64,000 nucleotides of DNA from a virus, in the IMG/VR virus record IMGVR_UViG_3300042465_005589, positions 141,741-205,740 of that record; one strand, 5' to 3'. Position 1 is the stretch's first letter, and each line of letters begins with the position of its first letter. Below the pieces are notes generated by a model that was not told where the DNA came from, ran no database searches, and saw only the letters and a list, made by a program, of their open reading frames with translations. Of the stretch, positions 4,583-42,072 are shown piece by piece. The position numbers and the translations under genes are program-made.

Positions 4583-4900
4583 TTACACACATTCCTTATC
4601 GTAAATACCTTGTAGATAATCGGCAAAATTATCTACCATAAAATAATACAAAGTATCTTTGGTTTTAGAATCAATCTTTCCGCCGTTTTCATAATAGTAA
4701 TCATCAATTAAATCCAATACCAGCATATCACACATTTCACCAATAAAATCACCCAAACTTCCATAATCACAAGGATTATAATTCTGTATAACAAAATCTA
4801 AATGACCTTTAATTTCGTCATAATTAAACCTTCTACGAAGTGATGCCGGGATATTCTCCATTAACAAGTTATGCTGTCTTTCAGTGATTATAATTTTCAT
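4583..4900 (-). CDS. Hypothetical protein of the ITE N-terminal family (MKIIITERQHNLL...).
   Basis: Conserved N-terminal MKIIITE peptide. Its stop and the downstream start overlap as ATGA. Confidence 0.6.
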   Translation of the reverse strand: MKIIITERQHNLLMENIPASLRRRFNYDEIKGHLDFVIQNYNPCDYGSLGDFIGEMCDMLVLDLIDDYYYENGGKIDSKTKDTLYYFMVDNFADYLQGIYDKECV

Positions 4901-5259
4901 TCCTCAACAAATTCCTCAATTAATTTATTCAAACTTATTCCCAACATATCAAGACCAAGTATTTTTAAAAAATTATTTTCGCTAATTTTACGATTGTGAG
5001 ATTCACTTAAAACTAAGGTACCATATTCTTTACCTTGAGGGTGAAGATAATAATTATTTCCATTAACCTTAAACAAATACATTGGACCATAATTATTAAG
5101 TAACCACCTAAACTCATCTCTACCATCAGTAAACAAGTTTTGACCTTTAGGACCTAATTCAATCCAATTTGTAATTATTTCAATATTGTCGGATAAGTTA
5201 TAACCCAATATATTATTGATTAACCCTTTTAATCTGTTTTCTGTTATTATTATTTTCAT
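4897..5259 (-). CDS. Hypothetical protein of the ITE family and paralog of 10259..10633. Start moved to the internal MKIIITENRL.
   Basis: Track ORF 4897..5286. About 45% identity to 10259..10633 (NNILGYNLSDNIEIITNW vs NNTLGYDLSDTIEMITNYW; LGLDMLGISL...EEFVEE vs MGIDMFGIPL...DNFVKEE). Confidence 0.65.
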   Translation of the reverse strand: MKIIITENRLKGLINNILGYNLSDNIEIITNWIELGPKGQNLFTDGRDEFRWLLNNYGPMYLFKVNGNNYYLHPQGKEYGTLVLSESHNRKISENNFLKILGLDMLGISLNKLIEEFVEE

Positions 5260-5600
5260 AATTCTTCCTCCACTCTTTTCCACCACCAGGGGTTATCGTC
5301 TCTCGCCGAAACATTATTTGAATGTAAACCATATTCCTCCAATAACCATTTTTTTAATATTGTTTGAACATCAGAAAAATCTAATCCAAATATTTTGGTT
5401 AACCCACTCCATATATTAAACACATCAACATACACATTAGTGTTTGTTAAATGATAGTCAATCATTACCTTACCGTCTTTAACATAGAAAAGACGAGTTG
5501 GGTTGGATTCGCTTGTAACCGAAGGTAACCCTCCAAATTTATCGGTCAACCATTTTAGGACCAATCTATGTAATCTATCTTCAGTAATTATCATTCTCAT
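5256..5600 (-). CDS. Hypothetical protein of the ITE family (MRMIITEDRLHRLV...).
   Basis: 114-aa ORF with the conserved N-terminal peptide, tightly packed with its neighbours. Confidence 0.6.
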   Translation of the reverse strand: MRMIITEDRLHRLVLKWLTDKFGGLPSVTSESNPTRLFYVKDGKVMIDYHLTNTNVYVDVFNIWSGLTKIFGLDFSDVQTILKKWLLEEYGLHSNNVSARDDNPWWWKRVEEEL

Positions 5601-5601
5601 A

Positions 5602-5919
5602 TTAATTTAATCTTCTAGTAAAAAAAGTTGATTTTAATGCTGACGGTTCATTAAATTTAATTGAAACATATTCTTTACAGATATCCACCAAATCAGGTAT
5701 AGACATCCCTAACATATTTTTAGCGGTATAAAAATCATCGTAGTCAAATCGTATTGATTCTTGTTTGGTATCATATTCAAAAGCGGTACGACCATTATCA
5801 TCCATATATTCATATAGAACGTGAGGATACCCCATACGTATCGGTCGTCTCCCGTGTTTCTCATAACCCCTAAAGGTCATATCAAAATATTTAAAGATGA
5901 GTTCTTTCTTTCTGTTCAT
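5602..5919 (-). CDS. Hypothetical protein.
   Basis: 105-aa ORF spaced 2 nt from the upstream gene. Confidence 0.55.
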   Translation of the reverse strand: MNRKKELIFKYFDMTFRGYEKHGRRPIRMGYPHVLYEYMDDNGRTAFEYDTKQESIRFDYDDFYTAKNMLGMSIPDLVDICKEYVSIKFNEPSALKSTFFTRRLN

Positions 5920-5930
5920 AATTAACTACT

Positions 5931-6335
5931 CTAATTTAATCCGGAACAACGTCCACCTTTACACGGGGACTTAGGACCATTATCTCCAGCCCAAAAAGTT
6001 CTTTCTCCTTTAGGTTCAGGATTTTCAGCAGCGTTCTTTTTTGTTCTATCATCAAATTCTTTATACCATTGGTCAAAAGTTTGTCCGGGTTTTTTATACT
6101 TTTCGTAAGATTTTGTCCAAACAAGTTTATTTCGTTCTTTCTTTAAAGAATCTTTAATAGCAAATGCTTTAGCCCGTTCTTGACGTAGAGCCTCCGCTTT
6201 TTCTTTATTAAGTTCAATTTGTTTTAATCTTTGTTGTTGAGGTGTTAAAACGGTAGTTGTCCCCCCACTAGTTACCGGAGGAGTGGTTTGTTCAATCAAA
6301 AAATTATACTGTGATTCTGTAATTAATATCTTCAT
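5931..6335 (-). CDS. Hypothetical Lys-rich protein of the ITE family (MKILITESQYNFLIEQ...).
   Basis: 134-aa ORF with the conserved N-terminus and a basic, coiled-coil-like middle region. Confidence 0.55.
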   Translation of the reverse strand: MKILITESQYNFLIEQTTPPVTSGGTTTVLTPQQQRLKQIELNKEKAEALRQERAKAFAIKDSLKKERNKLVWTKSYEKYKKPGQTFDQWYKEFDDRTKKNAAENPEPKGERTFWAGDNGPKSPCKGGRCSGLN

Positions 6336-9965: not shown

Positions 9966-10256
9966 TTAATAAAGTTCCTGGTAATTACGATAATAATCAA
10001 TCCTATTACCAAAATTTTTTCTAATTAAATCAGTTACATAAACTTTCTGTCCTAATGTTAAATCCTGTCTATCCGTTAAGTCGGAAATAACACGACGAAC
10101 AACCTCATCAAAATAATCATCACGATAATAAAATCTGGATACAATTGTAGGTTCACCCATAGAAACCAAATACTTGTCAACAAGTTTTCTGATAAGGTCA
10201 ATTCTTCTCTTAAACCATATGTTATTAAATTGATTCTCTGTAATTATTATTTTCAT
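9966..10256 (-). CDS. Hypothetical protein of the ITE family (MKIIITENQFNNIW...).
   Basis: Conserved N-terminus. An intrinsic terminator follows the stop at 9941-9965. Confidence 0.6.
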   Translation of the reverse strand: MKIIITENQFNNIWFKRRIDLIRKLVDKYLVSMGEPTIVSRFYYRDDYFDEVVRRVISDLTDRQDLTLGQKVYVTDLIRKNFGNRIDYYRNYQELY

Positions 10257-10258
10257 AT

Positions 10259-10633
10259 CTATTCTTCTTTTACAAAATTATCAATAATAGTGCTAAGAGG
10301 AATTCCAAACATATCAATACCCATATAAGATAATAGTCGATGTTCATCAATACGTTCAACATATTCGGGTTTATAACCACCTTCATAAATAAACCATTCA
10401 CGACCTTCACGTTGTTGAGCCAACCACTTGCCATTTCCGGGTGTCTTAATCCAAAACATAGGTCCCCAATGATTTAATAGTGTATTAAATTCTCCTTTAC
10501 TCTCAAACATACGACGTATAAGAACATTAGCTTCCCAATAATTTGTAATCATTTCAATCGTATCCGACAAGTCATACCCCAATGTGTTGTTGACCATATT
10601 CATCAACTTACTTTCTGCAATAATAATTCTCAT
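10259..10633 (-). CDS. Hypothetical protein of the ITE family (MRIIIAESKLMNMV...), paralog of 4897..5259.
   Basis: See 4897..5259. Repeat copy B sits directly upstream. Confidence 0.65.
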   Translation of the reverse strand: MRIIIAESKLMNMVNNTLGYDLSDTIEMITNYWEANVLIRRMFESKGEFNTLLNHWGPMFWIKTPGNGKWLAQQREGREWFIYEGGYKPEYVERIDEHRLLSYMGIDMFGIPLSTIIDNFVKEE

Positions 10634-14744: not shown

Positions 14745-15282
14745 ATTATTAACACTTATTTGTTAATAAATATAAGGGTCTAATGTTTATTCTACATACT
14801 CATGGGGGGAATTGTTGATAACTTAATATGTTAAATTCCTTGATTTTGTCAAAATGTCATGTCTGTTTCACGATGGGGATAATCCTTTTTCCCACTTTTT
14901 CCCCCATTTAACCTACACAGTCTACCACTTTTTACCACCGGATATGGTCATGACGCTATGTCAGTGTCCACTTTTCCCCCTCTGTAGGTAGTGTTAGGAC
15001 CAATAAATTAGGTATAGACGTTTCCCAGTAAATTGTATTAGTTATGGTCTATGATGCGGTGGAACCGTTAGGTGTTAGGAGATTCACTTCAACGACCCGT
15101 TAAGGGTATATAATTGACCACTAATGAACGAATTAAAAATATATAATATGGGACACTATAGAGACATAAAATACCATTAAAACTTACTATTCGTATCACT
15201 CTTGTGAGTTTAAAACTGACTGTAGTGATACAAAACATAACTTTTTAATCGATACCGTAATACAAGTTACCGTAACGTCCAT

Positions 15283-15340
15283 TACAATGTTCATTTAAAT
15301 CTATTGTTCATTGCAAATGAACATACTCTAATAATGAACA
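15283..15340. promoter_or_regulatory. Cluster of TGTTCATT / AATGAACA half-sites, including the palindrome TGTTCATTGCAAATGAACA. Operator-like.
   Basis: Four half-sites within 58 nt at 15288-15295, 15305-15323 and 15333-15340. Confidence 0.4.
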
Positions 15341-15712
15341 CCTCATCCGGATAACTAATCATGTCTGTAGTTTGTGTCGGAGACCGACACATAGTGGAGT
15401 CCCACTCTATATGGGGGGAACTTGTTCCCCCAACATAAATGGGGGGATTGTTTACTTGACTATTAATGGTCAATAGTAAAATGTATATATGGTGAGTAAA
15501 AGGATTATAATATATGATGTGTAAAGTAAAACAGTTATAATATGTAAACTAATAGTATCTGTATAGATTATTGAGTTTTTTATACAGATGGAAGTTAACG
15601 TATATAAATAAATGGATTTCTTATACATAAGAAAATAGTAAAGGATAAAACTATGAGTGAATTCCGGAGTGAAACGCAGGACTATGAACGAATGGTTTAA
15701 TCGTTTAGTATT

Positions 15713-16171
15713 TTACATATTGTATTCTAATGCGTCAACCATAAACAGGAAAATCTCATCTAATGTATTATCATCTAAATCCGTATATCGTTCAGTAAAA
15801 CTACCTTTGTGTCTATCATACTCTTCACCATCATAAACATCTATGGTAACAAAGTCCGGATTGAAATACTCAATTTGTTGTAACTCATAATCAGGAGAAC
15901 CATATGGAATAGCATTCATATTTAATTCATACGTAGATATCCCGGTTGAATTGTATTTTTCTGTTAACTGTTTTATTGCATCTCTAATGAAATTAATTTT
16001 ATCATCAATGGTAAAGTATTTGTGACCAAGAATATTTAATATTGGTTCATATCCACCCATTAACTTAATGGTATGATATAACCCGTACTTGGATATCATA
16101 TTCTTCACCATTTCCTCCCGGTTCTCCGTTAGTAATGATTGGATTCTATGTATGTTCTCGTGTAAATTCAT
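15713..16171 (-). CDS. Hypothetical protein of the MNL N-terminal family (MNLHENIHRIQSLLTEN...), paralog of 16175..16597.
   Basis: Conserved N-terminus plus an internal similar block (LQQIEYFNPDFVTIDVYDGEEYDRHKGSF vs LRQIEYLGKNRAMVDVYDEDMGTHLGDY). Confidence 0.6.
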   Translation of the reverse strand: MNLHENIHRIQSLLTENREEMVKNMISKYGLYHTIKLMGGYEPILNILGHKYFTIDDKINFIRDAIKQLTEKYNSTGISTYELNMNAIPYGSPDYELQQIEYFNPDFVTIDVYDGEEYDRHKGSFTERYTDLDDNTLDEIFLFMVDALEYNM

Positions 16172-16174
16172 ATC

Positions 16175-16597
16175 TTACTTATTGATTAATATCTCAACCA
16201 ATTCATCAAGTATTTGCCCCGGCAAACTTTCATATGGAATATTATAATCACCTAAATGAGTACCCATATCCTCATCATAAACATCTACCATAGCTCGGTT
16301 CTTACCCAAATATTCTATTTGACGTAATTCACCATCCTGTTCACTAAAATGAATTGGTTCTTCATTTATCTCGTGTAAAGCAAAACCACTACCATCATCA
16401 TTTATTTCTATAATTTTCTCTTTAATATAATTTACTTTGTCAATTTCCTTTAAGTATGGCTCAATCACATAGTAATTCCCCGTCATTTTAATGGCGTCAG
16501 CAACACCCATCTTGTCAATCATATTTCTGATGGCTTTATCCCTGTCATTTTCAGAGATTAAGGTATTAATTCTTTGTATGTTTTCTATTAAGTTCAT
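16175..16597 (-). CDS. Hypothetical protein of the MNL family (MNLIENIQRINTLISEN...).
   Basis: Paralog of 15713..16171. Confidence 0.6.
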   Translation of the reverse strand: MNLIENIQRINTLISENDRDKAIRNMIDKMGVADAIKMTGNYYVIEPYLKEIDKVNYIKEKIIEINDDGSGFALHEINEEPIHFSEQDGELRQIEYLGKNRAMVDVYDEDMGTHLGDYNIPYESLPGQILDELVEILINK

Positions 16598-17355
16598 TAT
16601 CCAATATTTGCTCCGGTTATTTGTCTAACCCCATATTCAGGGAAATGTTTCTTAAAGTAGTCCTGAACCGCATACCTGTAATGTCTTGACACATATCCAA
16701 AAGGAACAAATTGAACTAACTCATCATGTAATGAATAGTCCCACCATATTTGTTCGTCCTTTTTATCGTATCTCATTAAAGTTTTTTTAAGGTCTTTATC
16801 ATTAAACAATATAATTACATTATCATTCTCATCATACGCGTTTATTGCCATATCTAAAAACTTAACCATAGTTTTCCCCCACTTTGGATATTCATCTTCA
16901 TACTCTTGGTCAAAAGAAGCTCTTGAAACATAAGCGTCTTTACCCTCGCTCATCATATGTTTAAACACTTGTTTAATATGTTTTGGTAAGGAATTAATCG
17001 GTATTACTTTTGCTCTAATTGTTTCTAATCCTTGTCTTGCGGCTTTCTGTGCTCTGTGGTGCCCATCTATAATCGTTATGAACTCCCCATCATCATTAAC
17101 AAAGATTAATATTGGATATTGTAAGTCAGCGCTTTCTATCTTTCTAACCTCATCTTCATCCCCATCCCACGATAATAAGTGTGACTTTAATTCTTCTACA
17201 GATATTTTCCTCACCGGAATATCTTCTGTGGCGTTTAATAAATCAATAAGGGTGATTTTATCCCCCTCGTCATTTTCCCAAGATGTATCATGCAACCCTT
17301 CATTGATTACCCCCATCATCTGATGGATTCTATGTATGTTCTCTTGTAAGTTCAT
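16597..17355 (-). CDS. ParB-like nuclease domain protein of the MNL family (MNLQENIHRIHQMM...).
   Basis: ParB N-terminal domain signature ...ILIFVNDDGEFITIIDGHHRAQKAARQGLETIRAKVIP... Confidence 0.6.
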   Translation of the reverse strand: MNLQENIHRIHQMMGVINEGLHDTSWENDEGDKITLIDLLNATEDIPVRKISVEELKSHLLSWDGDEDEVRKIESADLQYPILIFVNDDGEFITIIDGHHRAQKAARQGLETIRAKVIPINSLPKHIKQVFKHMMSEGKDAYVSRASFDQEYEDEYPKWGKTMVKFLDMAINAYDENDNVIILFNDKDLKKTLMRYDKKDEQIWWDYSLHDELVQFVPFGYVSRHYRYAVQDYFKKHFPEYGVRQITGANIG

Positions 17356-17356
17356 A

Positions 17357-18130
17357 TTATTTGAAGTCCGGTAATTTAGTATCTTTAATAAACTTCTTGT
17401 GCGAATCTTTATACGATTTTTGAGTCTCGTCAGTCACTTTCTTGGTGTACTGCCAATTCCAATATAAATCATCGTTTGGTTTGAATCCGTAGAATCCATG
17501 TACTTCCTTCTGTGTTTCACTTACTGTCTCCCCGTTCCAATTCTGCCCAACACAAATGAAACCGGTCTCAATATCTTTTACAAGATTTGATTCCCCCAAT
17601 GTTGCGTGTCTATTCTCAATCCAAGTCAGTCTCTCAATTAAGTTCTGATAAAACATATTTGTTTGTCCCCACCTTACCGAACTAAAGAATATAACAGCGT
17701 CAGATTCAAACAACTCTTTGGAAATCTTCCATAACTCATCCTTTGGGTTGTTATAACTTGCCCAACATCTATGGTCTCCCGATGGATTCTTTTTCTTATC
17801 TTTGAGCATCGCTTTCAGTAATCCACAAGAGTTACCATCCTTTCTCGATACATTTCCCTCACAAGAAACAATATTAAGTTCCGAAACATCTATTAGAACT
17901 GACTTATCACCCAACTCATCGTTCAGGTACATCGCAATCATTTTTGACTTTGGAATGTCTATGTTTTTATCATCCCAATTATATCTATTGGAACAACTAA
18001 GTAGTAATACTTTCTTTTTCTTTTTAAGAATATCTAAAGTATTCTTAATTGATTTCCAAGCATCGGACTGAACCATCTCTTCGGAAATCATAATCTCTCT
18101 TATTCTTTGTATATCTTCGTTTAAATTCAT
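17357..18130 (-). CDS. Flavodoxin-like fold protein (NAD(P)H-dependent FMN reductase or quinone reductase-like) of the MNL family (MNLNEDIQRIREIM...).
   Basis: VLLLSCSNR... and SDAVIFFSSVRWGQTNMFYQNLIERL match the flavodoxin-like-fold reductase signature (DAxIFxSPxYWGxMSxxLKxFIDR). Confidence 0.5.
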   Translation of the reverse strand: MNLNEDIQRIREIMISEEMVQSDAWKSIKNTLDILKKKKKVLLLSCSNRYNWDDKNIDIPKSKMIAMYLNDELGDKSVLIDVSELNIVSCEGNVSRKDGNSCGLLKAMLKDKKKNPSGDHRCWASYNNPKDELWKISKELFESDAVIFFSSVRWGQTNMFYQNLIERLTWIENRHATLGESNLVKDIETGFICVGQNWNGETVSETQKEVHGFYGFKPNDDLYWNWQYTKKVTDETQKSYKDSHKKFIKDTKLPDFK

Positions 18131-18243
18131 AATGATAAATATAATGTTTGGTGAAACAGTTTTAATTGTTATATTGACGTATTTTTTTATTTATAAATAT
18201 CTTACTAAGCGGAATAATTAAATATATGTTGTATCTTTGAAGT

Positions 18244-18528
18244 ATGAAATTACTTAAATACTTAATCATCCGTCTAACAACCAAAGGGTCCGATAACGCC
18301 ATTAAAGTATATAATACTTTATACCCAACAACTCAACCGGAAATCAAATACGTTAGAGTTCCCGTAACTGAATCAACTATTCAGGTTCCCAACTCACCTA
18401 TGAAACCTGCCGATAAACGTGAAGAGCTTGAGGAATCATTATCCTACTTGAATAACAAGAAAGTTAAAACCAAACAGGACAAGGAATCCATCGAAATCAT
18501 CAAGTCAATATTGAAGAATATGAAGTAG
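18244..18528 (+). CDS. Hypothetical small Lys/Glu-rich protein.
   Basis: 94-aa ORF. A TATCTTTG -7-like motif lies 5 nt upstream and a hairpin lies downstream at 18543-18578. Confidence 0.45.
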   Translation: MKLLKYLIIRLTTKGSDNAIKVYNTLYPTTQPEIKYVRVPVTESTIQVPNSPMKPADKREELEESLSYLNNKKVKTKQDKESIEIIKSILKNMK

Positions 18529-18652
18529 TTACTTTTTGTGGTAAGATAGACCCCACCTTTTGGGGTTTATCTTGTGGTGATTGGTAATATATTTTATTCA
18601 CGGTTTACTACGCATTGTGTAGTGTTACGCAAATGAAATATATCTGTTGATT

Positions 18653-18712
18653 ACACTTTTTGGTACGAATAAATGTAATAGATAACACTTTTTGGTACGA
18701 ATAAATGTAAAT
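18653..18712. repeat. Two 26-nt direct repeats (ACACTTTTTGGTACGAATAAATGTAA) spaced 32 nt apart.
   Basis: Exact duplication visible in the sequence, adjacent to the 13-bp hairpin. Confidence 0.7.
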
Positions 18713-18762
18713 GTCCGTTATTACAAACATTATTATTGTTTTTGATTAGAATAACGGACATT
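18708..18762 (-). terminator. Long hairpin (13-bp perfect stem AATGTCCGTTATT / AATAACGGACATT with a 29-nt loop) abutting the stop of gene 18762..19097.
   Basis: Perfect inverted repeat with no clear T run, so it may instead be a regulatory or processing site. Confidence 0.4.
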
Positions 18763-19097
18763 TAATCCTCATTGTGATACCCCATCAAATATACTTCTTC
18801 GGGTTCTAACCTTATTCTATCTTTAAACCACCAAAAAATAACTCTTTGTAGTTCTTCCTCACCAAATGAGAAAACCGATAGAGGTAACCAAAAATCCCTA
18901 TAAACATATAATCCCCCATTATTCTCTAACCATTTCAATATAATTTTACCATCACTATCTTTGAATAACACTCGGTGATTACTAAACACTGAATTTACAT
19001 TCATATCTTTATCTTCACGTGTTAATTTACTCAAGACATTATCTAATACCTTATAGGATAATTGTCTTCTTTTATCTTCTGTAAGAAGTACTCTCAT
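18762..19097 (-). CDS. Hypothetical protein with an ITE-like N-terminus (MRVLLTEDKRRQL).
   Basis: 111-aa ORF. A 13-bp stem hairpin abuts its stop codon. Confidence 0.55.
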   Translation of the reverse strand: MRVLLTEDKRRQLSYKVLDNVLSKLTREDKDMNVNSVFSNHRVLFKDSDGKIILKWLENNGGLYVYRDFWLPLSVFSFGEEELQRVIFWWFKDRIRLEPEEVYLMGYHNED

Positions 19098-19483
19098 ATA
19101 TAATCATTAGTTATTTGAGCAACATTTAATCCTGTGTTTTCTTCAAACCATTCCTTAAATACCGGTAACCATCTATCACCAAATAAAGATGTTAGTTCTT
19201 GACCAACTCTCGGATATATAGATAGTAAAGGACATTTATAATTATGTAAGTGACCATAACCAGCAAAGAATTCATCTTCCGGACCAGCATTTGCGTTACA
19301 CCCATAGTAAATGTAGCTATCAGCATCATCTATAAAGAAAACAATATCACCCCACTTATCAACATCTCTTTGATATGAACCGTGTCTTGTATTTTCATTC
19401 CACCCATAATCCGGATAAAATTCTTTGTCTAAATACTTACGTATAATCTGATTAACTTTATTTTCTGATATAATTACTTTCAT
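19094..19483 (-). CDS. Hypothetical protein of the ITE family (MKVIISENKVNQII...).
   Basis: 129-aa ORF whose start and stop overlap with its neighbours. Confidence 0.6.
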   Translation of the reverse strand: MKVIISENKVNQIIRKYLDKEFYPDYGWNENTRHGSYQRDVDKWGDIVFFIDDADSYIYYGCNANAGPEDEFFAGYGHLHNYKCPLLSIYPRVGQELTSLFGDRWLPVFKEWFEENTGLNVAQITNDYI

Positions 19484-20091
19484 TCTTTTATAATTCTAAA
19501 TCTCAATAATGGTTTACCATTAATTGTGATGTCACCTTTATCATTTTTTTCTATTGTCTTAACAATAACTTTTTTGTTTTTAAATTTACCCCCCATTAGA
19601 GTATCACCAACTTTAATATCTAACTTAATCATTTCACTTAATGTTAATTCTTCTTCATCATGATGATTCCAAGTATCACCACCTGTTCCTTTGTATATTA
19701 ATCTAACGGCATTCGCCGGAATATCCCCAAAGGTAACGATATGTTTAGTATCACCACCCTCAAAATGAGCGTCTTTATACCATTGCACACCAGCTCTTTC
19801 AGTATCAATCACCCATATGTCATCATCATAAGTTGAATCAAACATATCTTTCTTCTTTAAACTATCTGTTGCAAACACAGCAGGAATACATTCTTCATCT
19901 TCACCATAATTACTATCGGCATAAATCAAATAACATTCCCCCAAAGATACCTGAAGACCTGTAGTTGAAATATTATCTCTATTTGATGGATTTGATGAAT
20001 GAACAATAAATCTTCCGGGAGTAATCTCTTCCCCCTTCACTCGTTGTTCTTGTAGTTTTCTATATTGTGTTTCTGTTATAATTACTTTCAT
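19480..20091 (-). CDS. Hypothetical protein of the ITE family (MKVIITETQYRKLQ...).
   Basis: 203-aa ORF. Confidence 0.6.
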   Translation of the reverse strand: MKVIITETQYRKLQEQRVKGEEITPGRFIVHSSNPSNRDNISTTGLQVSLGECYLIYADSNYGEDEECIPAVFATDSLKKKDMFDSTYDDDIWVIDTERAGVQWYKDAHFEGGDTKHIVTFGDIPANAVRLIYKGTGGDTWNHHDEEELTLSEMIKLDIKVGDTLMGGKFKNKKVIVKTIEKNDKGDITINGKPLLRFRIIKE

Positions 20092-20399
20092 TAGTCCCTT
20101 ACCATTTTAACTTCCATACCCCAACTTGCACCATATGTATTAATATAAAGACCAAACATTGAATTAATATCATTTCTTATTTGTCTAGCCATATAACTTG
20201 GACTATGTGTCATCTTACCATCAATGAAGTCAATGTTTAGTATATTTCTAACAATATCATTCTCACCTTTTTCATTTGGTTCACCGGCTAAACGAATTAA
20301 CTTTGTTGTAAAAAACACCCTTTTAACCATAGGATATCCTTTAAGAATATATTTCTCAATTGAACTATTTAACCTATTTTCTGTGATTATTACTTTCAT
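20091..20399 (-). CDS. Hypothetical protein of the ITE family (MKVIITENRLNSSI...).
   Basis: 102-aa ORF. Confidence 0.6.
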   Translation of the reverse strand: MKVIITENRLNSSIEKYILKGYPMVKRVFFTTKLIRLAGEPNEKGENDIVRNILNIDFIDGKMTHSPSYMARQIRNDINSMFGLYINTYGASWGMEVKMVRD

Positions 20400-20992
20400 T
20401 ATGTACCTATATTATTCAATCGTGCGTTATAAACACTTCTGTAGTCAGATTTTAGTTTATCATCAGGTAATTCTTCCAATTCACTTCTTCTTTTTAATGT
20501 TTGAGTATCTAAATAATCAATCATATATTCTCTACTCAACTTATCAGTATCAACCATCTCATAACATTTACGAGGGTCATCAGTTTCCAAAGTTTCATAA
20601 ATTTCAAATTCCGGATGACCGGTCTCTTGTCCAAATTTGGGTGTGTATCTATCATCATACCATTCGGTTATCACATTATAAATAAATGTCTTTCTAACCT
20701 GTAACATTTTGGATAAAAACTCAATCTCCTCCGCATCAACATACAAATCACCTGTGAAAAATTCATCAGTTTCATCATCAATATGATATCTGGCTTCAAT
20801 AACTTTCTTACCACCTTTACACCACTCTTCAATAAAGATACCATAGTTATCTTCAGGTGGTGGAATAATTCTTTTTGAATTGGAGATTATACTCTCCATA
20901 TGTTTAATAATAATACGTTCAAAGTTCGGATTAGATTTTGTAAATCTCTTCTGAACTTCCTCTCGTAATATTTTTCTAATTAAATTTTTCAT
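20399..20992 (-). CDS. Hypothetical protein with an N-terminus (MKNLIRKILREE) of the ELIRRILRE type.
   Basis: 197-aa ORF. Confidence 0.6.
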   Translation of the reverse strand: MKNLIRKILREEVQKRFTKSNPNFERIIIKHMESIISNSKRIIPPPEDNYGIFIEEWCKGGKKVIEARYHIDDETDEFFTGDLYVDAEEIEFLSKMLQVRKTFIYNVITEWYDDRYTPKFGQETGHPEFEIYETLETDDPRKCYEMVDTDKLSREYMIDYLDTQTLKRRSELEELPDDKLKSDYRSVYNARLNNIGT

Positions 20993-24154: not shown

Positions 24155-24376
24155 TGATATTAGTACTTATCTTTGTTGTGTTTTGGTTTTCGATTGTAAG
24201 CTTTTTTACTTTTTTGAACAGATGGACGAGATGCTGCCCATATTTCTTGCATTGTGAAGGTAATTGTTTTCATAGTTTCTGTATGTGTTAAGGTTATTGT
24301 TTCATTTTGACAAGACAAAAGTAATTCTTTTAATCGAATTATACAAGTATTTATTAAAATATTTATATTTATTATT

Positions 24377-24862
24377 ATGAAAGAATTAATTAGACGGATA
24401 TTAAGAGAATATACAGAACCAAAACCTATTTTAGTATACGAAATTGTTGTAAACGATATTTTAAGTGAACAAGAGTTTATTAGACAAATATATAGAAATA
24501 ACGACAATTTAATTAATTTATATAAAAACCCACATTCTCAGGAATTCATAGGAAATAAAACCTCATTTCAAAGAGTTGACCCAGATGAGATTAACGATTC
24601 AATAATGGATATTGAACCGGCAATAATCAGTTCAGCTAAAAGAGTAATGGAAACATGTATTACAAGATGTTCAATTAATGTTATCGATAATATAGCAGGA
24701 ATTGATTACCACATGTGGTTAAATGGAACAAATAATAGGATTAAAATAATAATTAACACATCAATCAGACATCCCAACCATCTAAAATTTAGAGTTAATG
24801 AATCTCCAACAATAATAGTGGATAGGTACGGTGACATATCAACAAGAAACATATATAATTAA
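24377..24862 (+). CDS. Hypothetical protein of the MKELIRRILRE N-terminal family.
   Basis: Its N-terminus MKELIRRILREYTE is near-identical to MKELIRRILREEQEG of the minus-strand gene 41152..42072. A hairpin terminator follows it. Confidence 0.6.
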   Translation: MKELIRRILREYTEPKPILVYEIVVNDILSEQEFIRQIYRNNDNLINLYKNPHSQEFIGNKTSFQRVDPDEINDSIMDIEPAIISSAKRVMETCITRCSINVIDNIAGIDYHMWLNGTNNRIKIIINTSIRHPNHLKFRVNESPTIIVDRYGDISTRNIYN

Positions 24863-25919: not shown

Positions 25920-26318
25920 TTATTTACTAGGTTTACAAACATAGAACCACACATAGTCACTGAATTCTACCGTTAACGACAGATATCCCGGACTACTTTT
26001 TAGTGCTCCCAAATAAATGTTACAAGTTCTACCTAATAAATCAGAGCAATACCATCTACTTGAACCATTCGATAATTTACCATCAAATTTAATTACGTGA
26101 TATTCTTGTCTTGTTTGAGAATAAATTGTGATGTCAGTCTCGTTTAATTTAATTAAAATATCACAATCTCTATATGTTGTTGTGTCCCAAGTCACTTTAT
26201 TTTTAGAATCTTTACTACCCATTTCAAATGTCTCAGCTCTAACATAATAAGGAGCGTCTTGACCAAAGGTTAGTAATGTCGTAAGTAGTAATACGAATGT
26301 AATTAATAGTTTTTTCAT
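25920..26318 (-). CDS. Secreted protein with a Bacteroidota-type signal peptide (MKKLLITFVLLLTTLLTFGQ).
   Basis: N-terminal signal peptide ending LTFGQ. Confidence 0.6.
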   Translation of the reverse strand: MKKLLITFVLLLTTLLTFGQDAPYYVRAETFEMGSKDSKNKVTWDTTTYRDCDILIKLNETDITIYSQTRQEYHVIKFDGKLSNGSSRWYCSDLLGRTCNIYLGALKSSPGYLSLTVEFSDYVWFYVCKPSK

Positions 26319-31564: not shown

Positions 31565-32422
31565 TTATTTTCTATTTAATAATATTCCCTGAGCCGAACC
31601 AAACACATTATTATGTCCGTATTCTGATGTACCATTCGTAGCTCTTATTCTCTCGGTCTCCGCTCTATACAACTCTAACAATTTAGGTTGAGATAAAATT
31701 TCCTTTGTTTTAGCGTCGTATAGTGCTGCCTCATAGTTACCTTTCGCATTTGCCACTTTCTTAAGTGCCGTTTGTTCCGCTTGTTTTGTTTGAGATATAA
31801 TGGTTGCCGTCTCCTGAAGAACCGCAATCTTTCTCTCAATAGCCGCCTTATACGAAGCCGGTAATGCCATTTTAAGGATTGCGATGTTATTCAATGTAAA
31901 CCCTTCTTTCTCTAACGCCACAGTCAAGGTCTTAGTCACGTTCGACTCATACACATTTCTATGTTGTAATAAACTATCCGATGCGAACGATACAGCATTT
32001 TCCAATAATTCCTTTCTAACAATCGTTCTTACTCTTGAATTAATTAAATCCTCCATACCCACTCGATACTTAATAAATAAGTCAGCCGCTCTCGCTCTCT
32101 GTAATTGTAAGTTAATCGACACATCTAACCCGAATGTCGCACCATCCGCAGATGTTACATCAATATGTTCATCCGTTGGGGAATCTTCATTTGAATCTGC
32201 TGACCATACTTTGTGTTGAACCGATGTTGGATACATAAACACATCCTGTGTTGGTGGGAAATAAAAGATAAACCCCGAAGCCATTTCAATATTGGGAATA
32301 CCCTTGTTAGTCCCAATTTGGTCCACCACTAACGCAACCTCAGCCGAGTCAGCAATCTTACAAGAAGCTACTCCAAAAATAAACAATAACACTACACCTA
32401 CTACTACTAAAATTCTTTTCAT
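31565..32422 (-). CDS. SPFH/band-7 (HflK/C-like, prohibitin-like) protein with a lipobox.
   Basis: N-terminal MKRILVVVGVVLLFIFGVASC (lipobox), an SPFH core, and an Ala/Glu/Lys-rich coiled-coil tail. The promoter motif lies 38 nt upstream. Confidence 0.6.
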   Translation of the reverse strand: MKRILVVVGVVLLFIFGVASCKIADSAEVALVVDQIGTNKGIPNIEMASGFIFYFPPTQDVFMYPTSVQHKVWSADSNEDSPTDEHIDVTSADGATFGLDVSINLQLQRARAADLFIKYRVGMEDLINSRVRTIVRKELLENAVSFASDSLLQHRNVYESNVTKTLTVALEKEGFTLNNIAILKMALPASYKAAIERKIAVLQETATIISQTKQAEQTALKKVANAKGNYEAALYDAKTKEILSQPKLLELYRAETERIRATNGTSEYGHNNVFGSAQGILLNRK

Positions 32423-38374: not shown

Positions 38375-38905
38375 TTAATTCATTTGGAAATATCGACTAG
38401 AGTATTTAGGTCTGTCAAAAATAATGTTTATACCTGTCTGTGATGTAATGTTGTCCTTAAAATAATCATTGATACCCCAATTAACTTCATCTTCAACTTC
38501 CCATCCGTAATCATCATTGTCTAAAGCATCCTCTAATGTCTTGTGGTCACCACCTACATCAACATGACCACCCAAATCATCAACCTTAATTTTAACAACA
38601 ACATTTGGTTCTGAGCTATCTAAATACCAATTACCAATACCAATAACCTCAAAGAAAAAATTATAACCACCAAAATTATCTATATGGTGTGGGTTCTGAA
38701 GTAATAAGGTTTTAGCAAGTTCTTTCGATTCTTTTTCACCTCTCCACTCAATTAAGTATTTGTAGGCTTGGTTATAAGTAATGTCACTATCACTATTATC
38801 TAACCCAAAAAAAGAAATGAAATTCTTATCTACCTTACCAGCTGTTTTGTCCCAATACTTAAAAAGTATATTTTTGTATTTAGATTCAGTTATTATTAAT
38901 TTCAT
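38375..38905 (-). CDS. Hypothetical protein of the ITE family (MKLIITESKYKNIL...).
   Basis: 176-aa ORF. Confidence 0.6.
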   Translation of the reverse strand: MKLIITESKYKNILFKYWDKTAGKVDKNFISFFGLDNSDSDITYNQAYKYLIEWRGEKESKELAKTLLLQNPHHIDNFGGYNFFFEVIGIGNWYLDSSEPNVVVKIKVDDLGGHVDVGGDHKTLEDALDNDDYGWEVEDEVNWGINDYFKDNITSQTGINIIFDRPKYSSRYFQMN

Positions 38906-41151: not shown

Positions 41152-42072
41152 TTAATCTAATAATTCTATCTCAGTGTTATCATCCGTTAAGTATTTCGGA
41201 TAAGTTCTTAGTATGTCTTGTTTAATTGTATTTGTAATATTGTTCAATAACTCAGGATTGTCTCTAAAATTGGAATCCGGTATCATTTTCCTGTCAACCA
41301 TTTTACCAGCTTTAAGAACTTTGACAGATATTTTAATTTTACCATCAACATCCTCAATGTCTTTAATCATAAAATTAACTCTGTGAGCATTATCCCCCCA
41401 ACCTCCACTGATTAATTTTGATTGATTAGTTATTTTATCTTTATCTTTTACAAAGTTTGAAACTCTACTAGATTTAACCGTTTCAATGTTACGACTTCCT
41501 CGAATAAGACCTTCCATCTCATCTTTGGTAATACTCATAACATTTGCATTTAAGTTTGAATCAAATTTAACAGGGTTAACCTGACTCATTTGTTTTCTTG
41601 TAGAACTTGAATACGTTTCTAATGTTCTGTACCATTGGTCATTAATAAATAAGAACACTGGATACCACCCATATGATGTAATAACATAATACCAATCATT
41701 ATTATTATTTACATTCCACTGACCTTCAATATTTGAACCCTTAAACGGCATTCTAGCCGACGCATATTCATAAGCCGTATTATTAGTAACTTTTCTCTGT
41801 TTGAATTGTCTGAAATCCTTGAAATTCTCGTTTGTTAAATTTTCATAATCCCCTTCCGGTCTGAAGTTAGCCGTGTATACTTCATAATAAAAATGAGAGT
41901 CGTTTGGTGACATTCCAAGTACCGGTAAAATAGACCTTAAAAATTTTAAAAATTCAGGTTGAGTCTTAGTTTCCCTTTTATGTTTGTCAATATACTTAAA
42001 TAACATAATTTCCTTTTTAGTTAAAGGACCTTCTTGTTCTTCTCGTAGTATACGTCTAATTAGTTCTTTCAT
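41152..42072 (-). CDS. Hypothetical protein of the MKELIRRILRE family.
   Basis: 306-aa ORF with the conserved N-terminus. Confidence 0.6.
   Translation of the reverse strand: MKELIRRILREEQEGPLTKKEIMLFKYIDKHKRETKTQPEFLKFLRSILPVLGMSPNDSHFYYEVYTANFRPEGDYENLTNENFKDFRQFKQRKVTNNTAYEYASARMPFKGSNIEGQWNVNNNNDWYYVITSYGWYPVFLFINDQWYRTLETYSSSTRKQMSQVNPVKFDSNLNANVMSITKDEMEGLIRGSRNIETVKSSRVSNFVKDKDKITNQSKLISGGWGDNAHRVNFMIKDIEDVDGKIKISVKVLKAGKMVDRKMIPDSNFRDNPELLNNITNTIKQDILRTYPKYLTDDNTEIELLD

Follow-up and report, generated by a model that had tools for sequence, protein, structure and literature searches.

A portable N-terminal leader on unrelated proteins of an uncultured virus lineage is a probable capsid-targeting tag resembling scaffold and protease tails

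Four consecutive genes on the minus strand of an uncultured virus genome, here named p1 to p4, encode proteins that begin with the same short peptide. We propose that this shared N-terminus is a portable leader that probably serves to target proteins to the capsid, analogous to the capsid-targeting sequence (CTS) of phage T4, with a different motif and a much larger cargo repertoire. The genes lie in a 64,000-nt stretch of the IMG/VR record IMGVR_UViG_3300042465_005589 (positions 141,741-205,740; hereafter the window), which is AT-rich (~31% GC) and carries most of its genes on the minus strand. They are p1 (15713-16171, 152 aa), p2 (16175-16597, 140 aa), p3 (16597-17355, 252 aa) and p4 (17357-18130, 257 aa), with the N-termini MNLHENIHRIQ, MNLIENIQRIN, MNLQENIHRIH and MNLNEDIQRIR, respectively, and the common start MNLxE[ND]IxRI. 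A sequence-only reading of the window had drawn attention to these four starts, which agree exactly with the list of open reading frames (ORFs), and the internal strings that it quoted for the two larger proteins, IIDGHHRAQKAARQG and DAVIFFSSVRWGQTNMFYQNLIERL, are found within p3 and p4.

Past the leader there is little that unites the four proteins. As had been stated, p1 and p2 are paralogs, with 35% identity over their full length (E 3e-25) and 31% beyond residue 20, without the leader (E 1e-17), and past residue 20 neither p3 nor p4 matches any other protein of the cluster. That p1-p4 might be one diverged family was therefore rejected, only p1 and p2 being similar once the leader is passed. 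To have eight of the first ten residues in common is far beyond what chance would give in otherwise unrelated proteins. At the nucleotide level, the identity among the four genes begins exactly at the ATG and fades after ~30 nt, the upstream regions are unrelated, and a stretch of 20 nt is identical between the leaders of p1 and p3.

Leaders were sampled from 200 related loci (1.97 Mb), which were reached through relatives of p4, present on 263 IMG/VR contigs of up to ~325 kb, and through a degenerate leader DNA pattern, which gave more than 119 further loci. From these contigs we collected 187 distinct leader-starting ORFs that fall into 69 cargo clusters without mutual similarity. The suggestion that unrelated domains stand behind a common leader thus extends well beyond the four genes in which it was noticed. 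The leader is ~17-20 residues long and forms an amphipathic helix with two conserved faces. Its consensus is M-N-L-Q-E-N-I-x-R-I-K-x-M-M-G, followed by 2-4 residues and then Glu; a second type reads MNLQESIRRILREE, and the core can be written as hydrophobic-x-R-[I/M]-K-x-[M/L]-M-(G) with [I/L]-x-E at the end. When one representative of each cargo cluster was compared with Pfam, ART-PolyVal (3 clusters), Acb1 anti-CBASS, GNAT, Pterin_4a and P-loop kinases were recognized, and most representatives had no Pfam match. Among proteins for which packaging and injection along with the phage DNA have been predicted or demonstrated, ParB/sulfiredoxin (Srx), ADP-ribosyltransferase (ART) and 2H domains are characteristic (PMC5512222).

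Exchange of leaders on the same cargo provides a direct view of the leader as a unit. Conservation of the ParB cargo starts sharply at E19-G20 of p3, and this one domain is found behind three leader types, MNLQENIxRIKxMMGVINE, MNLRQTIRKVLRE and MKKIIRLTESELISLVKRVINE. The p1 cargo family likewise occurs behind three leaders (a slash marks the leader end), MNLxENIxRIxQMMGxINE/N, MNLxENIxRIQSLLTE/N and MKLIGTIKSIINE/N, all of which end in [I/L]-[N/T]-E. Besides its N-terminal position the leader is found internally and at C-termini, and leaders that lack the Met are kept at internal domain junctions of fusion proteins. In an AlphaFold2 (AF2) model of p3 the leader (residues 1-22) is detached, with a predicted local distance difference test score (pLDDT) below 50, and in the model of p4 residues 3-19 of the leader (residues 1-19) form a separate helix. 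Among 1.84 billion representatives searched, distant p4 homologs align from residue ~24-28 only, and some start at strand beta-1. The leader exchange on the ParB cargo, the detached p3 leader and the p4 homologs without a leader led us to reject the possibility that the leader is an integral part of each fold; to judge from the sequences compared, it is a separate, portable and interchangeable module. Synonymous codons vary at its invariant residues: L3, present in 68 of the 69 leaders, is encoded by CTA, TTA, TTG, CTG or CTT, and R9, present in 64 of the 69, by four Arg codons. Such variation with almost no replacement of the amino acid points to selection at the level of the peptide.

The connection with the phage head comes from the places in which the core motif recurs. 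Within a set of 2000 distinct proteins (402,377 residues), taken from the window and the related loci, R[IM]K.[LM]M was counted in 54 N-terminal leaders, 30 times in the last 12 residues of a protein and twice at internal positions. The scaffold-position protein or the S77 protease accounts for 26 of the 30 C-terminal cases, for which 0.015 are expected from composition. Scaffold tails end in ...AYENPQFRRMKDLMGKIK or ...ENPQFSRIKEMMRKIK and the protease tail in ...DDRMKKLMGKLDSFLSK, and the leader consensus hexamer RIKEMM ends six scaffolds versus 0.006 expected in the whole set. When a profile hidden Markov model of the leader was compared with the scaffold and protease tails, the E-values were only 0.7-4, the match being 7-10 residues, and because of these weak values the argument rests on positional specificity, counts and co-variation.

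Co-variation is seen in Flavobacterium phage vB_FspM_immuto_3-5A (immuto), which has the closest cultured capsid protein (41.6% identity). Its scaffold-position protein ends in SEQVSRWQKLAGIIK, and apart from this tail [RK][MW]Q.LAGII occurs only twice in the 160-kb genome, both times at an N-terminus: MKKQILSEQFKRMQFLAGIITE and MKKQILSEQFRRMQKLAGIITE (MKKQILSEQF[KR]RMQ.LAGIITE), followed by cargo without significant similarity. As this pairing of sequences indicates, leader and scaffold tail co-vary between lineages. The immuto scaffold-position protein (L280:7707-8948; MW353176.1 125582-126823) is annotated as 'DNA polymerase phi-like protein'; it is most likely the head scaffold, as judged by its position between S77 and Gp23, its composition and the resemblance of its N-terminus to that of the lineage scaffold.

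The end of the leader resembles the site at which a T4-type prohead protease would cut. An [ILV]-x-E ending within residues 13-24 is present in 63 of 69 leaders, compared to 21% of background windows (p = 2.6e-36), and the leaders of p1, p2, p3 and p4 end in LTE, ISE, INE and ISE, respectively, in agreement with (L/I)-x-E. The T4 protease gp21 cuts behind L/I-x-E, and in IPIII the first 10 residues are enough for targeting to the head (PMC9026906).

A head module of the T4 type is encoded in related loci that bear p4. These loci contain a Gp23-type major capsid protein (MCP; PF07068, 246.6 bits) and a Peptidase_S77 prohead protease (PF03420, 77.9 bits; phrog_207, 6.5e-40), along with tail sheath and baseplate wedge. 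The order of the head genes, a 141-aa protein, S77, an acidic coiled-coil protein of ~400 aa and the MCP, mirrors that of gp68 (141 aa), gp21, gp22 and gp23 in T4, and an S77 protease, a putative gp22-type scaffold and a gp23-type capsid are thus all present in related contigs. An alignment of the lineage S77 protease (L018:10670-11353) shows G-I-L-I-E at residues 12-16, parallel to the LIE-9 site of T4 gp21, which suggests N-terminal self-processing; near residue 60, the lineage MCP has ...SYLINE/AA, comparable by eye with ...FLTE/AE of T4 gp23. Given the immuto MCP, the lipoprotein and Bacteroidota-like signal peptides and the lack of Shine-Dalgarno sequences, this lineage is probably a T4-related jumbo myovirus of ~300 kb that infects Bacteroidota. 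In the window, lipobox-type (..MIGC, ..VASC) or Bacteroidota-style signal peptides are encoded at 277-702, 31565-32422 and 25920-26318, as would suit a Gram-negative host, probably one of the Bacteroidota.

In the mechanism that we propose, the leader core would be a copy of the C-terminal tail found on the scaffold and the prohead protease of the same phage. As the head is assembled, the leader would dock its cargo in the prohead at the same site as the tails of the scaffold and the protease. The S77 (gp21-like) prohead protease would then cut after [I/L]-x-E, thereby freeing the cargo inside the capsid, from where it would pass into the host along with the DNA. For leader proteins all four events, docking, cleavage, packaging and ejection, are inferred. 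If the leader is such a tail mimic removed by S77, p1-p4 become candidate internal head proteins that are ejected. On a larger scale, it is conceivable, though we put this forward tentatively, that an abundant group of T4-related uncultured phages of ~300 kb loads dozens of enzymes by way of interchangeable tail-copied tags, and that some of these enzymes are packaged as polyproteins, which the prohead protease cuts at internal tags. The tag would in that case be a sequence-readable marker of a very large injected arsenal (ADP-ribosyltransferases, Acb1, kinases, ParB/Srx, flavoproteins).

Several observations weigh against this proposal. The S77 protease, scaffold and MCP were identified in related contigs and were not found in the 64-kb window or in its closest relatives (L001-L012), where p4 lies among accessory genes. 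The scaffold-position protein has no Pfam or PHROG match and was identified only by gene position and composition. At the sequence level, [ILV]-x-E is short and frequent in helical stretches generally, the cores of p1, p2 and p4 are degenerate (LLT, LIS and IMI in place of MMG), and the T4 CTS (MKTYQEFIAE) has no sequence similarity to MNLQENIxRIKxMMG, so that the two are not related by homology. Codon usage in the leader is biased (CTA 52% versus 9% in the background, AAC 72% versus 26%, with ATA also over-used), so that shared DNA ancestry or nucleotide-level constraints contribute as well. Finally, a redox flavoprotein is not an obvious ejected effector, and with ~20% of the window genes bearing some class of leader, there would be many proteins to package should all classes act alike.

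The leader could instead be a generic docking or oligomerization helix for another hub of the phage or the host, such as a chaperone, a replication or transcription factory, or a membrane complex. Its amphipathic character with two conserved faces, its presence at N-terminal, internal and C-terminal positions, the share of about one fifth of the window genes that bear some leader class, and the location of these genes among accessory and not structural genes would all suit this role. We nevertheless consider it unlikely, as it leaves unexplained why the motif is almost restricted, outside leaders, to the prohead protease and the scaffold-position protein, why leader and scaffold tail co-vary in immuto, and why the [I/L]-x-E boundary is conserved. 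Alternatively, the leader might act as an S77 pro-peptide or recognition exosite that keeps potentially toxic enzymes inactive or times their activation by late proteolysis, the cargo being neither packaged nor ejected. The tail of the protease and that of the scaffold, which is its main substrate, do have the motif in common with the leader, the leader ends in a cleavage-type [I/L]-x-E, and ARTs, kinases and nuclease-like domains are found among the cargo. T4-type prohead proteases work inside the assembled prohead (PMC9026906), however, so that the substrate would be needed there anyway, and in the AF2 models of p3 and p4 the leader does not occlude the cargo; this explanation appears quite improbable to us.

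We give very little credence to the idea that conservation acts mainly on the DNA or RNA, with the first 30-60 nt serving as a start optimized for translation initiation or as a recombination handle for the shuffling of cassettes and the peptide having no role. The unusual and uniform leader codon usage (CTA, AAC and ATA over-used), the 20-nt stretch that is identical between p1 and p3, the lack of a Shine-Dalgarno sequence, the promoter-like motif that abuts the ATG, and the hyperplastic nature of leader-gene arrays speak for such a scenario. It does not account for several synonymous codons at invariant residues with almost no amino-acid replacement, for Met-less leaders conserved inside fusion proteins, for non-homologous leaders that swap on the same cargo, or for the recurrence of the motif at scaffold and protease C-termini. 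Equally remote, in our judgment, is the view that p1-p4 form a dedicated system made up of a ParB-like nuclease, a redox flavoprotein and two accessory paralogs. The genes are tightly packed and co-directional behind one promoter-like motif, and they were called in identical order in three independent NCBI metagenome assemblies, but these assemblies represent near-identical genomes (p1 99% identical). More distant relatives carry p4 with other neighbors, the ParB domain fused to other modules, and the p1/p2 family at other places, and no system match was found with PADLOC, Pfam or NCBIfam. The genes that flank p4 vary between genomes, with differing leader-bearing cassettes on both sides, and in ~45 of 80 loci p4 stands by itself in a variable island flanked by a tail/baseplate block on one side and a convergent head block on the other. 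Since the neighbors of the flavodoxin-like gene p4 differ between relatives, p1-p4 are not a conserved system; they are best seen as independent cargo cassettes within one transcription unit rather than a co-operating set. The sequence-only reading is therefore upheld as regards a leader shared by unrelated domains, while its notion of a dedicated four-gene system is not.

A capsid-targeting leader, the reading that we prefer, has its closest counterpart in T4, whose diverse internal proteins have been known to carry a CTS since the 1990s. There, as here, a short N-terminal peptide on otherwise unrelated proteins (IPI, IPII, IPIII and Alt) ends at the prohead-protease motif L/I-x-E in a phage with a gp23-type capsid and an S77 (gp21) protease, and the genes form variable tandem loci with cargo of the host-modifying or anti-defense type. 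The internal proteins of T-even phages are diverse, with the CTS as their sole common part (PMC3012670). The leader described here differs from the T4 CTS in its length (~17-20 residues versus 10), in the element it copies (the C-tail of scaffold and protease versus the scaffold N-terminus), in having at least 3-4 interchangeable types as well as internal and C-terminal copies, and in its cargo, at least 69 families in the sampled DNA, in an uncultured jumbo lineage of ~300 kb that is known from sequence alone. What would be new relative to T4 is thus a longer, non-homologous tag that appears to originate from the scaffold and protease C-tail, with several interchangeable types and internal tags, and also the very large cargo repertoire and an uncultured, T4-related jumbo lineage as its carrier. 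By eye, MKTYQEFIAE/A of T4 IPII and IPIII resembles the N-terminus of scaffold gp22, MLKEQLIAE/A, whereas the leader here resembles the scaffold C-tail; the rule that the tag mimics a scaffold terminus may hold in T4, too. The T4 loci used for comparison were L288:4118-4927 and L289:3417-4416 (NC_000866).

Other known systems share individual features. The phiKZ-like phages SPN3US and 201phi2-1 are also giants, their gp21-related protease cuts after Glu, and SPN3US gp53 and gp54 are paralogous head proteins with identical N-termini (PMC5694885). The propeptides of their ejection and inner-body proteins differ in having an S/A/G-x-E motif and mostly more than 100 residues, and they are not short portable tags on dozens of enzymes. 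Polyvalent proteins, MuF toxins and P1 Dar proteins contain ParB/Srx, ART-PolyVal and 2H/Acb1-like domains as found here, and they are predicted, as leader cargo is here, to be delivered along with the DNA when infection begins (PMC5512222). Polyvalent proteins are defined as combining 2-15 biochemically disparate domains in a single polypeptide whose gene lies beside virion genes (Iyer et al. 2017); p3 contains two domains, and a single cargo is usual among leader proteins. Effectors of the polyvalent, MuF and Dar type are parts of a giant polypeptide or of MuF/portal fusions, whereas leader proteins are mostly small and single-cargo, with some fusions that contain internal leaders. Encapsulin cargo-loading peptides and microcompartment encapsulation peptides are further parallels, in which a short terminal amphipathic peptide with a linker brings diverse enzymes into a shell, and the encapsulin shell has the HK97 fold. 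These systems are cellular, involve no DNA, protease removal or ejection, and have no sequence relationship to the leader.

Provided that the leader does target proteins to the capsid, the sequence itself would show which proteins are injected with the phage DNA. Such proteins serve counter-defense and host takeover in the first minutes of infection, and finding them normally requires virion proteomics of cultured phages. The tag would then provide a catalogue of candidate anti-defense effectors from an abundant uncultured lineage, with at least 69 cargo families, mostly without assigned function. It would also suggest that targeting tags in general imitate one end of the scaffold, a rule which fits T4 (N-terminus) and immuto and could help to find packaged proteins in other phages, and it would offer new short tags by which foreign proteins could be brought into phage capsids. 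Because immuto is cultured and has two tagged proteins (immuto35A_42 and immuto35A_187), the idea is directly testable. Should the MKIIITE, ILREE and LTESDL leader classes act alike, up to about one fifth of the genes in such regions would encode packaged proteins.

Three further classes of N-terminal leader head tandem arrays of unrelated small genes in the window. One, MK[IV]IITE, is present at 4583-6335, 9966-10633, 18762-20399 and 38375-38905; another, MKELIRRILREE, at 20399-20992, 24377-24862 (plus strand) and 41152-42072; and the third, MKKIIKLTESDL, at 2193-2651. Together with MNL, the leader classes are found on ~22 of 104 window genes (~20%), and in relatives the ParB cargo can carry a leader of the ILREE or LTESDL class in place of MNL. 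A 203-aa protein of the MKVIITE class (window 19480-20091) shares a domain of ~120 residues, at 53% identity, with a leader-bearing protein of 1057 aa (L176:178-3351). No other cluster in the sampled loci is as large as that of the latter, which has 111 members and no Pfam match, and as it was built by single-linkage blast (E 1e-10) it may pool several families. A basic motif containing Cys, CW.GY.QKGMKTMFGKRYPNC(VKK), was seen in 39 distinct lineage proteins, 20 of which have it at the C-terminus and 19 at an internal position (for example L002:5402-6001, L018:4064-4711 and L092:63-893); most of these proteins also bear an N-terminal leader, and none is encoded in the window.

Within the cluster, p3 consists of a leader and two domains. 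Its leader (residues 1-19, MNLQENIHRIHQMMGVINE; 17299-17355, minus strand, as are all features of the cluster given below) is of the canonical type A, with the core R-I-x-x-M-M-G and the end I-N-E. It is followed by a ParB/sulfiredoxin-fold domain (residues 23-136; 16948-17289) with a DGHHR motif, and by a C-terminal domain (residues 150-252; 16600-16908) that has a confident fold and no recognized relative. The AF2 model, built with 29 sequences, has a pLDDT of 79.5 and shows the two domains confidently with a loose linker in between. Residues 30-128 match phrog_17560 (1e-13), several ParB-like PHROGs more weakly, and small hypothetical or 'ParB' proteins of jumbo phages, and residues 23-136 have the alpha+beta fold and conserved Arg-containing motif of the ParB/sulfiredoxin superfamily. 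This superfamily takes in CTPases, kinases and sulfiredoxins besides nucleases (PMC5512222). Of the proposal that p3 is a ParB-like nuclease, the fold and motif therefore stand, while a nuclease activity is putative. We rejected a role as the partition protein of a ParABS system, since the TIGR00180 score is 12.2 bits against a cut-off of 58, the C-terminal domain has no helix-turn-helix-type match, and no ParA-like gene is present among its neighbors in the window. In relatives, both halves of p3 exist as separate leader-bearing proteins, the C-terminal domain standing alone behind its own leader, and the ParB half is fused to many C-terminal modules, including Pterin_4a and zinc-ribbon-like ones. 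The smaller paralogs are built similarly: p1 has a leader of 17 residues with an L-T-E end, and p2 has a leader of 17 residues with an I-S-E end, followed by a small helical 'IK..GxY' module and a C-terminal domain without assigned function. We found 125 homologs of p1. Searches of p1-p4 with Pfam, NCBIfam and PADLOC returned no significant family, and a PDB sequence search of the cluster proteins gave chance matches only.

The leader of p4 (residues 1-17, MNLNEDIQRIREIMISE; 18080-18130) ends in I-S-E. In the p4 model (pLDDT 66.8, predicted template modelling score 0.73), the leader helix is followed by a second helix and a five-stranded parallel alpha/beta core with the three-layer architecture of flavodoxin-like folds, an SCSNR loop after strand beta-1 and a Cys-rich insertion at residues ~90-126. 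There are 3844 metagenomic homologs, many of which are named 'multimeric flavodoxin WrbA' by the Joint Genome Institute (JGI). Searches of p4 against Pfam (FMN_red, Flavodoxin), NCBIfam and PDB sequences gave no match, the JGI name of its relatives being the sole label, so that of the earlier assignment as a flavodoxin-like FMN (flavin mononucleotide) reductase the model supports the fold, whereas a match to the curated FMN_red or Flavodoxin families was not obtained. Five cysteines are invariant in the family (C46, C90, C102, C122 and C193), three of which fall in the low-confidence insertion as C-x11-C-x19-C, ending in RCW, and one distant homolog (P0379) is fused to a GxFxPxHxGH nucleotidyltransferase. 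The cysteines and this fusion may indicate a metal or Fe-S center and a link to nucleotide cofactors.

The leader is nearly absent from other collections. Its DNA pattern gave 80 matches in 185,579 prokaryotic species genomes (one each), all by chance except for one stray 3.3-kb contig (L200) that carries true leaders; among those discarded was the N-terminus of UvrA, MNFFENIPRI. This near-absence argues that the leader is not a cellular motif, and the scan does not assign a host. L186 and L197, a MNLKENIIRIWKAKG zinc-finger protein of a different phage, were likewise set aside as chance matches to the pattern; a contig of a giant-virus metagenome-assembled genome with Hsp70 (L090) has no leader-type ORF at the match. 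Against 50,697 phage records, blastn of 15000-19000 and megablast of 1-25000 found nothing, nor did tblastn of p4 and of leader consensus peptides of 21-29 aa, and none of the cultured phages in the phage collection has an MNL-type leader. An exact 45-mer of the window gave no match in IMG/VR, a full-text literature search for leader strings returned noise only, and Pfam and PHROGs searches with the large window proteins and the neighbors of the cluster were almost all empty.

The gene junctions within the cluster are TAAtATG, TAATG (an overlap) and TAAgatATG. An octamer that resembles a promoter, ATATTTAT, lies at 18135-18142, 4 nt before the start codon of p4; it is absent before p3, p2 and p1, and this single copy in the cluster is consistent with one transcription unit from p4 to p1. 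The same octamer is found 5' of many leader genes in relatives. Shine-Dalgarno sequences are absent, the promoter-like motif abuts the ATG, and ATATTTAT may be a phage promoter that yields leaderless mRNAs or mRNAs with a very short leader. In the window as a whole it occurs 31 times versus 20 expected, yet it is strongly positioned, at a fixed 4-6 nt before many starts; further minus-strand copies are at 2656, 6340, 7421, 10638, 13979, 24052, 30322, 58020 and 63961, and plus-strand copies at 24365 and 36296. The head genes of related loci have TATTTAT ~20-30 nt upstream instead. A scan of the cluster for sigma-70 promoters and terminators gave nothing exceeding shuffles, Rfam had no match in the window, and no tRNA genes were found there. 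Directly downstream of the cluster, at 14745-15712, lies an ORF-poor gap of ~970 bp with runs of C and G, which could be a regulatory region, an uncharacterized RNA or a decayed gene; the GC skew in the 14-16 kb bin that includes it is near 0, compared to about -0.2 elsewhere in the window.

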